A stretch of DNA of 56,442 nt. It comes from Minisyncoccia bacterium (lineage in GTDB: Bacteria; Patescibacteriota; Minisyncoccia; Phycocordibacterales; UBA2100). The position numbers and the translations under genes were made by a program. The notes under the pieces were generated by a model that did not search any database, had not been told where the DNA came from, and saw only the letters and a program-made list of their open reading frames with translations. How positions within the stretch are numbered: the stretch's first letter is position 1; each line of letters opens with the position of its first letter. The stretch covers positions 1 through 56,442 of the forward strand of contig CBFHTW010000001.1 of the NCBI GenBank assembly GCA_965659025.1, written 5' to 3'. This document shows positions 32,409 to 34,766 of this stretch, piece by piece.

Positions 32409-34766
32409 TTACCTAATGCGGTAACCCTTCCCCTCTAGCGCCGCAGTGATGCCTTCCATAAGCACCTGGGCATCGGTGTCGGAGAGTGTTTTGTCGTGCG
32501 ACTGAAACACAAGATGAAATGCGTACGATATGTTGTCGTCTTTTTGGAATGTATCAAACAAAAACACGCGAGAGAGGAGCGGGCCGGCGACAGATCGGAT
32601 GAGCGCCTCTACCTCTGAAGCCGACACAGATGCCGGAACCCACAATGCAATATCGCGCAGAAGGTAGGGAAACGCTGAGATGGGAGTGTACGCCGCGTGC
32701 ACATCCACGCGCGGTGCGGGTGGATACGGCGTCTCTGGAGCGGGCAGGGTGTCCGCAATCGCACCAAGGTCGCACTCAATGATGTCCGCTGTTTCCGTAA
32801 ACGACACGGAAACCCCAAGGGCGGATTCCACCGTACTGCGCGCCAGGGCAAGCGCACTGGCATGCACCTCGCTCTCATGTTTGCCGGGCGGAGCGTATAC
32901 ACCGATCGCGAGCGCAAGCACTTCTTCCTCTTCTTCCGAAAACACATTGCCTATCTCAAACACCCGCACCGTATCACCGCCAAGAAGCGGAAGTTGCTTT
33001 TCGTTGCGCGCGAGCACGTCGGCGAGCGCGCCGCGCAGATCCTTACGCAAAGTGCTTTTGTCAGATGCGAGCGGATTCGCAAGATGCACCACTCCGTCCT
33101 CACGAAGAGCGTACGTAGACACTTCGCAAAAGCCGAGTGCCGAAAGCGCGGCGCGCACGCGCTCGGAGTAGTAAAAACGATTGTCCGGAACCGACACTGC
33201 ATCTTCCGTAAGCGCGGCGATGCCGATTTTTTCATATCCATACACGCGCCCTATCTCTTCTATGAGATCCGCCGGTATGCGCAAATCAAGACGCTCAAAG
33301 GGCACGGTAACGACCGCGCGCAGAGAGGTGTCGTCAAGCACGCGACGATACCCGATCGTGTTGCGGAACGACGGACTCTCATCAAGCGGCTCTATAACCA
33401 CGCGGCCTGGATCGCGCGTGGCATGCAAGACAAGGTTGTTGCCAATGTACAAACCCACATGGTCAATACCCTCGGGTACGGACGTGCCGGGAATGAATTG
33501 TTTTGTCTCGTAATGAATGTTGCCGCGGTTGCTGTTGGAAAAGACGAGATCACCCAGTGTCAGCGCTTCACGAGTAATCGGCGTGCCCCAGACATACTGA
33601 TCAATGGAAATGCTCGGCATGGCGATACCCACCTGCACAAAAAGATAATTCGTGAGCGAAGAACAGCTGAATGTGTGCGGCGCATCAAAACGAATGGCGC
33701 TGTCCCCCTTGTACTGCGCGCCCACGAGCGTCTGCGCCACCTTGAGCACTTTCTCCTGCGGCTGTACCACCTCATACGGAAGTCCCAGTTGCACAAGAAT
33801 GCGCGTGATGTCTTCCAGGGTGAGTTGTGTGCCCAAAAGACGATTAACCTCGCGCGCGGAGACTCCAAGCTTAAACGGCGCTCCGGCCTTGCGGCGCACT
33901 ACGTCAACATCACGAAGCGTTCCTCCTGCGATGTCTGAAATGAGCGCTGTAACGGCGCGCAGGCCGTAGAGCGGCAAGTCGTCGGCGATTTCGTTTTCAA
34001 AGCGTTTGGAGGCGTCGGTGCGAAGCTGGAGTCTTTGTGCGGCGCGACGCGTTACCACCGGATGAAACTTCGCCGCTTCTATCACAATCGTGGACGTCTC
34101 GCCGGTAAGCTCGGCGTGCGCGCCGCCTTTGACTCCCGCGATGGCGATCGGGGTGTCAGACATGGTGTCGATGATAACCATTTCTGCCGGAGAAAGTTCC
34201 AGGCTCTCTCCTCCGAGAATTCCAATGTTCTCTCCCTCGCGAGCATCGCGCACGCCGATAGAGACAACTCCGTCGTGGGAGAGCTTGTTTGCGTCAAACA
34301 CGTGGAGCGGCGTCCCGAGCTCAAACATCACGTAATTTGTCGCGTCAACGATGTTGTTGATAGAGCGTTGCCCTACCGCAGAGAGTCGCTCCACGAGCCA
34401 CGCGGGTGATGGTCCTACTTTCACGTCTTCCATAATTGCCGCGCAGTAGATAGGACAGCGGCTCGTGTCGTGGACGGAGACGCGCACGGAACCCGATGAC
34501 TCGGGAAACACCGGTATATCCCCAGAGAGCGGGTCGCGAGAAAGCGGCACGTCAAGCAGAGAAGAAAGTTCCCTCGCCACTCCGCGGTGAGAGAGACAAT
34601 CGTGCGCGCGATTGGGAAGCACTTTCACATCAAACACATGGTCTGCGCCTGCTTTAGAAACACCTTCTACTTCAAAAGCTCCAAGTGTGAGACGGCTCGC
34701 AAGCTCCTCTGCCGAAGGGAGTGGTTCCTTGAAAAACGTTTTGAGCCATTCGTAGCTGATTAACAT
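32409..34766 (-). CDS. pheT: Phenylalanine--tRNA ligase beta subunit with an inserted NlpC/P60-like domain
   Basis: B3_4 editing domain (CPIYCAAIM...[23 protein letters not shown]), B5 domain, core and FDX-ACB C-terminus. A roughly 145-aa insert at aa 335-480 is described in the findings. No N-terminal OB (tRNA_bind) domain. Confidence 0.93.
   Translation of the reverse strand: [785 protein letters not shown]

Follow-up and report, generated by a model that had tools for sequence, protein, structure and literature searches.

A stretch of 56,442 nucleotides from a Minisyncoccia bacterium of the Patescibacteria (contig CBFHTW010000001.1, positions 1–56,442; hereafter the window) encodes a phenylalanyl-tRNA synthetase (PheRS) β subunit, PheT, that carries an NlpC/P60 (C40) domain in its interior. 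Sequence profiles and structure models show the insert as a folded cysteine hydrolase-type domain with an intact predicted Cys368-His436-His448 triad, nested in the β-hairpin of the B5 domain of a genuine PheT. The insert represents, in fused form, a cytoplasmic NlpC/P60 clade that is specific to Patescibacteria and linked to PheRS. Also new is the occurrence of this hydrolase in sister lineages as a stand-alone protein whose gene is linked to PheRS genes. The domain is almost certainly of the active type and functionally tied to PheRS, and the findings point to an undescribed accessory activity of this synthetase.

Architecture, synteny and editing residues identify the host protein as PheT. 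The domains of the window PheT are arranged in the order B1, B3/4, B5 N-terminal half, NlpC/P60, B5 C-terminal half, catalytic-like module and FDX-ACB, with no B2 domain between B1 and B3/4. Pfam locates B3_4 at residues 104–281, B5 in two stretches (C-terminal part, residues 484–511), NLPC_P60 at residues 363–475, tRNA_synthFbeta at residues 531–625 and FDX-ACB at residues 697–785. The window PheT shares with bacterial PheT (TIGR00472; Thermus thermophilus 1b70 and 2iy5) the B1 domain, the B3/4 editing residues, B5, the catalytic-like module, the anticodon-binding FDX-ACB domain and an upstream overlapping pheS gene. Unlike T. thermophilus PheT, it contains a 150-aa hydrolase domain in the B5 hairpin, lacks B2 and pairs with a PheS that has no coiled-coil. 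The score against TIGR00472, the NCBIfam PheT equivalog, is 373.8 bits and falls under the cutoff of 402.65 because B2 is missing and B5 is split. B3/4, B5, the catalytic-like module and FDX-ACB are nevertheless all present in order, and pheS is the neighboring gene.

The insert replaces a short loop of B5. In the alignment with T. thermophilus PheRS-β (1b70_B and 2iy5_B), residues 332 and 486 of the window PheT pair with residues 436 and 444, respectively, and ∼150 residues thus stand in place of a B5 loop of ∼7 residues. The insert alone matches NLPC_P60 (PF00877) with 52.4 bits (E = 5.6e-14), and the whole PheT matches it with 45.8 bits, against a curated gathering cutoff of 23. Multiple NlpC/P60 models of NCBIfam also match the insert (E = 1e-10 to 1e-6), and the best match in a sequence search of the PDB is 7cfl_A (E = 7.7e-13). 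An NlpC/P60 domain in B5 of PheT had been proposed in an earlier reading made from the letters of the window (the sequence-only reading), and it is borne out by the Pfam score, the matches to solved domains, the model with its fold matches and the triad in 105 orthologues. The range proposed in that reading, 33327–33764 (residues 335–480), was accurate and is reset here to residues 334–485 (33312–33767). The block-for-block motif match to NlpC/P60 that it described is real, as judged by the PDB sequence matches and the family alignment. The codon that it assigned to the catalytic cysteine (33663–33665) is exactly that of Cys368, and both histidine residues, His436 and His448, are present.

The insert is predicted to fold as a compact domain that is continuous with B5. 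An AlphaFold2 model of B5 with the insert, built from a 26-sequence alignment, has a mean predicted local distance difference test (pLDDT) score of 94.8 and a predicted template modeling (pTM) score of 0.89. The model of full-length PheT (pLDDT 93.4, pTM 0.76) gives the insert pLDDT values of 93–97 and contains no low-confidence linker at either junction. The modeled B5 topology is β1-α1-α2-β2-[insert]-β3-α3, which places the insert in the ‘wing’ hairpin of the winged helix. The top 50 Foldseek matches in the PDB are all NlpC/P60 domains, and the best of them is the catalytic domain of C. difficile Acd24020 (7cfl_B), with a template modeling (TM) score of 0.92 normalized to the target and a root-mean-square deviation of 1.5 Å. 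The fold is that of the classical C40 DL-endopeptidases (C. difficile Acd24020, 7cfl; T. thermophilus LysM-NlpC/P60, 4xcm; E. coli MepS/Spr; B. subtilis LytE/CwlO), with TM scores of 0.86–0.92. The Cys, His, His order and the motifs G.PY, DCS, PR..Q, GDL.F and HVG.Y.G...IHA are likewise common to the insert and these enzymes. Unlike them, the insert is cytoplasmic and acidic, has no signal peptide or wall-binding modules and is nested in an aminoacyl-tRNA synthetase subunit. The export signal or wall targeting that is typical, but not strictly defining, of NlpC/P60 is thus absent from a domain that is internal to a cytoplasmic synthetase.

The putative active site is conserved throughout the family. 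Among 105 aligned full-length family members, the Cys and His residues of the triad, which follow the classical order, are near-invariant (Table 1). The substitutions at position 448 are N, D, Q, Y and G, and N, D and Q are compatible with catalysis. Asp406 is present in 105 of the 105 sequences, and Y352, F366, G380, P384, Q390 and F409 are further conserved positions of the NlpC/P60 core. The mean pairwise identity is 0.42–0.43 for the insert, 0.46 for B3/4, 0.43 for B5, 0.44 for B8 and 0.31 for the catalytic-like module. This conservation indicates that purifying selection acts on the insert as strongly as on the rest of PheT.

Two positions next to the triad cysteine and in the following motif depart from the family consensus in the window PheT, which reads ‘FSCSS’ and ‘MPSIS’ where the consensus is ‘FDCSS’ and ‘IPRIS’. 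The pairs at positions 367 and 385 are D/R in 89 family members, S/S in eight, T/T in one and T/S in one. Because the two positions covary, a direct contact between them beside the catalytic Cys is suggested, and the covariation marks Ser367 and Ser385 as a paired replacement of a likely contact and not as decay. The family also has an enlarged loop or hairpin (residues 411–433) between ‘GDLVF’ and the catalytic His, which is ∼14 residues longer than its counterpart in 7cfl; the stand-alone relatives described below have a shorter counterpart, ‘G.YN..FPQGIGHV’. Together with this pre-His loop, the clade-specific features comprise ‘YKYGA’ at the position where classical NlpC/P60 has ‘Y.WGG’ and an added (D/E)AP segment before the Cys.

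The same insertion occurs in a large number of Patescibacteria. An exhaustive HMMER search of 1.84 billion cluster representatives (50%-identity clusters) identified 139 representatives at E ≤ 1e-30, mostly PheT proteins of 770–810 aa with the B5 N-terminal half, the insert and the B5 C-terminal half in a single stretch. This search overturned the extreme rarity suggested by a word-indexed search, which had returned one full-length relative (P0001) and fragments. A scan of GTDB, with one genome per species and two insert-derived peptide patterns, found 37 species genomes in which the N-terminal part of PheT, the insert and the C-terminal part lie in one open reading frame (ORF) with the same insertion point. 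A metagenome scan added ∼10 further loci with this insertion point. The insert-bearing genomes belong to Parcubacteria/Paceibacteria-type Patescibacteria (Lloyd-, Terry-, Yonath- and Vogelbacteria and Paceibacterota); some third-party assemblies with the insert carry the generic label ‘Saccharibacteria’. A neighbor-joining tree of the domain gives the monophyly of all inserts only 20% bootstrap support; a single insertion event is favored because the insertion point is identical.

The insertion is authentic. Neither GC content nor GC skew shows a break at the insert borders, base composition is even along pheT, and independent Logan assemblies contain a copy with 97% identity. An assembly chimera, which the sequence-only reading had considered, and chance are ruled out because more than 100 orthologues have the same architecture and insertion point, in agreement with the even composition and the independent copy. 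The contig of P0001 (locus L001; JGI 3300072492, Ga0642625_00636) is a noisy assembly in which frameshifts throughout split pheS, pheT, prfA and other genes into several ORFs. A genuinely split pheT at this locus is therefore ruled out.

Other Patescibacteria, including Jorgensen-, Giovannoni- and Colwellbacteria, encode the domain as a protein of its own. The genome scan identified small ORFs of ∼145–190 aa that consist of NlpC/P60 only and that have the insert signature ‘PYKYGA...AP..FDCSS’ and a related enlarged pre-His loop. The stand-alone proteins score 92–123 bits against a hidden Markov model of the insert, compared with ∼50–100 bits for most classical wall hydrolases. At E ≤ 1e-10, the stand-alone family has 1170 clusters, whose median length is 147 aa. 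An N-terminal hydrophobic segment is found in 1% of the PheRS-linked family and in 76% of the classical NlpC/P60 matches, so that the stand-alone family is assigned to the cytoplasm; the earlier statement that NlpC/P60 domains are normally secreted stands as a tendency and fails as a rule. The median isoelectric point (pI) is 5.6 for the inserts, 6.6 for the stand-alone proteins and 9.3 for the classical enzymes. The neighbor-joining tree separates the classical enzymes from a joint group of inserts and stand-alone proteins (72% bootstrap support); the core inserts are supported at 93%. Copies beside canonical PheRS are intermingled with copies beside monomeric PheRS in the domain tree. No fusion of the stand-alone hydrolase with monomeric PheRS was found among the best 120 of the 1170 matches. 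Stand-alone cytoplasmic members are labeled ‘peptidoglycan endopeptidase LytE’.

Stand-alone genes are often located beside PheRS genes. A PheRS gene lies within 1 kb at 16 of 40 non-redundant stand-alone loci and at 10 of the 20 loci whose sequence extends at least 2.5 kb to each side. The comparison set consisted of the classical NlpC/P60 loci that these scans had returned, less L001, a frameshifted PheT::NlpC; one of these 29 loci has a PheRS gene within 1 kb. The Fisher test gives p = 1.9e-4, and a binomial test against a rough genome-size expectation of 1.2% gives p = 1e-14, values that overstate the evidence because related lineages are not independent samples. The stand-alone gene overlaps a monomeric PheRS gene on the same strand at seven loci (L084, L088, L090, L106, L112, L155 and L166) and is divergent from one at six (L086, L091, L093, L094, L120 and L165). 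At five further loci (L082, L097, L098, L118 and L163), it is divergent from a pheS-pheT pair with an insert-less PheT, and L074 and L160 resemble this arrangement at a distance of 2.3–2.4 kb. In a complete Giovannonibacteria genome, the NlpC gene is followed by a monomeric PheRS gene (4-bp overlap) and gyrB. This is the same chromosomal position as that in the window, since the order there is pheS, pheT::NlpC and gyrB. The stand-alone NlpC gene also recurs near gatC-gatA-ligA and, at some loci, beside genes for M14 peptidases or YkuD (L159, L160, L161, L163, L164 and L166), a vicinity that may reflect common descent of the gene order or point to a connection with wall peptides.

The monomeric PheRS (∼375–420 aa) consists only of the class II core (tRNA-synt_2d) and FDX-ACB and therefore has no editing domain. 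This type is found in many Patescibacteria (for example, L047:1903-3057, L052:4603-5754, L155:5450-6598 and L164:4948-6075); no monomeric PheRS gene is present in the window. The monomeric enzymes score under curated cutoffs, with 235.5 versus 258.35 bits for pheS_mito and 217.7 versus 300 bits for ‘PheS-related mystery ligase SrmL’, and a literature search for ‘SrmL’ returned unrelated abbreviations only. They share the class II core, FDX-ACB and the lack of an editing domain with mitochondrial PheRS-M (3cmq; TIGR00469). Unlike PheRS-M, they are bacterial, fall under the curated cutoffs and are encoded together with an NlpC/P60 gene. At two loci (L130:3301-3984 and L131:287-970), a 228-aa ORF located right after the monomeric PheRS gene contains truncated B5 remnants that flank an NlpC/P60 domain with an intact triad, and this ORF nests inside the insert clade in the domain tree. 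It is apparently a PheT::NlpC relic that retained the B5-NlpC module when the rest of PheT was lost.

A second cysteine peptidase gene accompanies the hydrolase at many loci. A C39_2-like gene (∼165–200 aa) lies directly downstream of pheT::NlpC at 22 of the 39 insert-bearing loci with enough downstream sequence, and a C39-like gene is found near 10 of 47 stand-alone NlpC or monomeric PheRS loci, as in L164, where the order is NlpC, C39 and monomeric PheRS. Examples are L004:7432-7983, L014:7366-7959 and L164:4428-4925, and ∼30 other loci have the gene; the window has none. The small, cytoplasmic C39-like protein lacks a signal peptide and retains the Q...C...H...D pattern intact; among solved structures, the ComA peptidase domain is closest, with an E value no better than 4e-4. 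The NlpC, C39-like and PheRS genes constitute a recurrent three-gene module.

The known editing site of PheRS is retained next to the insert. The B3/4 residues T143, N144, H155, E230, T250 and A252 of the window PheT correspond to T249, N250, H261, E334, T354 and A356 of T. thermophilus PheRS, whose roles in editing have been described (PMC3275996). Among the 105 family members, N250 is kept in 105, H261 in 104, T354 in 101, E334 in 86 and A356 in 80. The insert-less PheT proteins encoded beside stand-alone copies also keep the editing residues and have 8–9 residues at the insertion point. Because the B3/B4 residues are intact, the insert is an addition to the known Tyr-tRNAPhe editing site and not a replacement; a role in compensating for a decayed site is ruled out by the conservation of these residues in both insert-bearing and insert-less PheT.

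Two other parts of the enzyme have been lost. Residue 42 of the window PheT aligns with T. thermophilus residue 153, and residues 1–41 (34644–34766, minus strand) are followed directly by the B3/4 region, which shows that the B2 (EMAP/OB-fold) domain is absent. B2 loss is family-wide, and the absence of B2 from many PheRS-β proteins of the candidate phyla radiation is already known (PMC5370408). For a contribution of B2 to editing, Mukai et al. (PMC5370408) cite Roy and Ibba 2006. The PheS proteins of the window (249 aa) and of most insert-bearing loci are short and lack the N-terminal coiled-coil (Phe_tRNA-synt_N), which helps bind tRNAPhe (PMC3275996). The coiled-coil is kept in the most divergent insert-bearing lineages (L036, L037, L115, L122, L124 and L125) and at all insert-less loci. 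The insertion thus preceded the loss of the coiled-coil, since the deepest insert-bearing lineages still have it.

The domain may act as an accessory hydrolytic subunit of PheRS. The sequence-only reading had raised an extra hydrolytic, editing-like module or a moonlighting activity as pure conjecture; the genomic ties of the family to PheRS and the intact B3/B4 residues now bear on this idea. In the mechanism favored here, an acyl group that PheRS makes or holds would be attacked by the Cys368 thiolate, most likely the ester of an aberrantly acylated tRNAPhe or the mixed anhydride of a non-cognate aminoacyl-adenylate. The attack would yield a thioester that is then hydrolyzed, and the outcome would be a second proofreading or clearance activity beside the retained B3/B4 Tyr-editing site. 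In lineages with monomeric PheRS, the domain would be the only PheRS-associated hydrolase. We infer acyl-tRNAPhe or acyl-adenylate as the putative substrate, a tentative assignment with somewhat less than even confidence. A tRNA or adenylate substrate is favored because the family tracks PheRS of either type, because its gene overlaps the gene of an editing-less PheRS, suggesting translational coupling, because the B5-NlpC relic was retained when PheT was lost and because the heterotetrameric enzymes of the clade lost B2 and later the coiled-coil. It is possible, but rather doubtful, that the PheRS-linked NlpC/P60 proteins, perhaps with the C39-like partner, represent new papain-fold thiol deacylases or transferases for PheRS products (aminoacyl-tRNA or aminoacyl-adenylate), fused into B5 of PheT in one Patescibacteria radiation and serving as a translationally coupled subunit of monomeric PheRS in sister lineages.

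Several observations weigh against action on PheRS products. We know of no aminoacyl-tRNA editing or deacylating enzyme with an NlpC/P60 fold. The only matches of the insert in Pfam and NCBIfam are to models of NlpC/P60 peptidoglycan hydrolases (and weakly to C92), and no homology to known editing or deacylase folds (B3/B4-CtdA, AlaX, YbaK, DTD and Pth) was found by Pfam, NCBIfam or Foldseek. The family keeps essentially all core residues of the classical γ-D-Glu-diamino-acid endopeptidases (Y352, D367, S369, R385, Q390 and D406), a pattern equally compatible with a peptide-amidase specificity that has not changed. With its acidic pI, the domain does not look like a broad RNA binder, and the intact B3/B4 residues in both kinds of PheT leave no obvious editing gap in the heterotetrameric enzymes. 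In addition, about half of the stand-alone genes are not beside PheRS, some adjoin M14 peptidase, YkuD L,D-transpeptidase or gatCA-ligA genes, and part of the PheRS adjacency could be synteny inherited among related lineages.

The main rival is a cytoplasmic peptide amidase co-localized with PheRS, which would apply classical NlpC/P60 chemistry to a γ-glutamyl or N-acyl amide of free peptides from recycled murein or scavenged peptides and would not use tRNA as a substrate; we consider it unlikely on balance but a serious contender. Tethering to or co-expression with PheRS would then serve co-regulation or a local supply of amino acids in amino-acid-auxotrophic episymbionts, and the C39-like partner would be a second peptidase of the same degradative route. 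The substrate-groove and catalytic core residues of the classical enzymes are all kept, true peptidoglycan DL-endopeptidases (7cfl, 4xcm, MepS, LytE and CwlO) lead both the sequence and the fold matches, and the recurrent C39_2-like gene and the M14 and YkuD neighbors of some stand-alone copies agree with a peptidase route. The window also encodes MurB and an SLT transglycosylase, which indicates that the organism makes a cell wall. A peptide amidase leaves unexplained the specific link to PheRS, namely the fusion in PheT, the overlap with the monomeric PheRS gene and the retention of the B5-NlpC relic. It likewise does not account for an insertion in an internal loop of an essential enzyme with a rigid predicted interface, and the clade-specific changes near the active site (‘YKYGA’, (D/E)AP and the enlarged loop) suggest an altered substrate site.

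Transferase and structural roles are less likely. The NlpC/P60 superfamily includes acyltransferases that work via a Cys thioester. As an acyl or aminoacyl transferase similar to the LRAT/H-RAS-like branch, the domain would take Phe from Phe-AMP or Phe-tRNAPhe as a thioester on Cys368 and then transfer it to an amine. A peptidoglycan precursor, the N-terminus of a protein or a small molecule could be the acceptor, which the C39-like enzyme would prepare or process. The physical integration into the enzyme that makes activated Phe is consistent with such chemistry, the conserved three-gene module hints at a short pathway and not a single proofreading step, and a FemAB/ATE-like gene is close to the module in L001. 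This FemAB-like neighbor was seen once only, and no acceptor-related gene is consistently present among the loci examined. An LRAT-type permuted acyltransferase is rejected, since the Cys, His, His order is classical where LRAT enzymes have a permuted one and since Pfam gives the insert no LRAT match (PF04970, E ≤ 1). A transferase in general is improbable.

A mainly structural role, in which the insert would be a tRNA-binding or assembly module that offsets the loss of the PheS coiled-coil and B2 and would keep its catalytic residues for stability or by inertia, is very unlikely. It draws on the absence of B2, on the PheS proteins without the tRNA-binding coiled-coil in the window and at most insert-bearing loci, where insert-less relatives keep it, and on the predicted rigid docking of the domain on B5. 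The triad is kept in ∼93–98% of the 105 diverged sequences, with rare changes at the third position that are mostly catalysis-compatible. The insertion is older than the coiled-coil loss, the stand-alone form coexists with a complete pheS-pheT pair that keeps the coiled-coil, and the acidic pI is also at odds with such a module. The likelihood of an assembly chimera, or of a recent selfish or accidental insertion without function, is negligible, since the same in-frame insertion occurs in the diverged orthologues from independent assemblies and sources, with even composition and the near-identical Logan copy, and since the sole oddity, the splitting of the L001 pheT among several called genes, is caused by frameshifts that hit many genes of that contig.

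Proofreading modules such as AlaX, YbaK/ProX and DTD are known, and editing domains have precedents in both cis and trans forms. To our knowledge, the accessory and editing domains of aminoacyl-tRNA synthetases are well catalogued, none has a papain-like cysteine hydrolase fold, and no papain-fold thiol enzyme has been described in an aminoacyl-tRNA proofreading role. A synthetase with an accessory domain is known; the new element is that the domain belongs to a superfamily not seen before as such an accessory. Glutathionylspermidine synthetase/amidase offers a precedent for a papain-like Cys amidase on a cytoplasmic ATP-dependent ligase, with a CHAP amidase related to NlpC/P60 that is fused to the synthetase and hydrolyzes its product. 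That enzyme differs in having an ATP-grasp ligase and a terminal instead of a nested fusion, and tRNA is not involved. If the PheRS product hypothesis holds, the logic of a hydrolase that is fused to the synthetase or free beside it would be shared with PheRS B3/B4 and the free-standing B3/B4-like CtdA (PMC12268091). Searches confined to the openly searchable literature returned no description of NlpC/P60 in PheT or of a PheRS-linked NlpC/P60 family.

In a large uncultivated radiation, an essential translation enzyme thus carries a constrained cysteine hydrolase domain with an intact site, and the family follows PheRS in three genomic configurations. Activity on aminoacyl-tRNA or adenylate would amount to new proofreading or transfer chemistry and would explain how an editing-less monomeric PheRS is tolerated in bacteria. 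A cysteine-protease fold would then have its first representative among proofreading or transfer factors, and a cell-wall hydrolase would have been recruited into the translation apparatus. If peptides are the substrate instead, peptide catabolism would be physically coupled to tRNA charging in amino-acid-auxotrophic symbionts, which is unusual. The finding also bears on annotation. Family members (relatives P0046 and P0053) are annotated as ‘C40 family peptidase’ (MDE2071330.1) or ‘phenylalanine--tRNA ligase beta subunit-related protein’ (MFA6094535.1). With sub-cutoff PheT scores and ‘C40 family peptidase’ names, genomes can seem to lack PheRS-β, and cytoplasmic proteins can seem to be wall hydrolases.

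Table 1. Coordinates in the window of pheT, its domains and key residues, and the adjacent genes
Feature	Position	Strand	Basis
pheT, PheRS β subunit, 785 aa	32409..34766	-	ORF; Pfam and NCBIfam; alignment to 1b70_B; full-length model
B3/4 editing domain	33924..34457	-	Pfam; T. thermophilus alignment; editing-site residues
B5 N-terminal half, residues 295-333 (β1, α1, α2, β2)	33768..33884	-	Pfam; models; T. thermophilus alignment
Inserted NlpC/P60 (C40) domain, residues 334-485, between B5 β2 (331-334) and β3 (483-487)	33312..33767	-	unaligned to T. thermophilus PheRS-β; Pfam; Foldseek; models
Pfam NLPC_P60 core match, residues 363-475	33342..33680	-	Pfam
B5 C-terminal half, residues 486-511 (β3, α3)	33234..33311	-	Pfam; T. 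thermophilus alignment; full-length model
Ser367 (family consensus Asp of ‘DCS’)	33666..33668	-	covaries with 385
Catalytic Cys368	33663..33665	-	codon check; 103/105 orthologues; aligns with catalytic Cys of solved NlpC/P60
Ser385 (family consensus Arg of ‘PR’)	33612..33614	-	partner of 367
Enlarged loop/hairpin between ‘GDLVF’ and catalytic His, residues 411-433, consensus ..G.I.YES.EF.PGT.VPEG	33468..33536	-	family-conserved
Catalytic His436	33459..33461	-	codon check; 103/105 orthologues
Third triad residue His448	33423..33425	-	codon check; 98/105 orthologues
pheS, PheRS α subunit, 249 aa, without N-terminal coiled-coil	34760..35509	-	ORF; 7-nt overlap with pheT
gyrB, immediately downstream of pheT	30291..32324	-	ORF translation; synteny with L155, L164 and L166

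The rest of the window is composed of ordinary housekeeping genes, which encode UvrA, MurB, UvrB, TyrRS, SMC, DnaE, a class II aminoacyl-tRNA synthetase, GyrB, a GT2 glycosyltransferase, a release factor, an SLT transglycosylase, TopA and RelA/SpoT, and it contains three tRNA genes. Four ORFs of 261–515 aa, all on the minus strand (23654–25201, 25366–26151, 27573–28805 and 45498–46670), have no Pfam match at E ≤ 1e-5. Long plus-strand ORFs run antisense to pheT (32697–33938) and pheS (34796–35569) and are most likely by-products of the ∼56% GC composition. The GT2 glycosyltransferase gene probably starts near 35570 and not at 34796.

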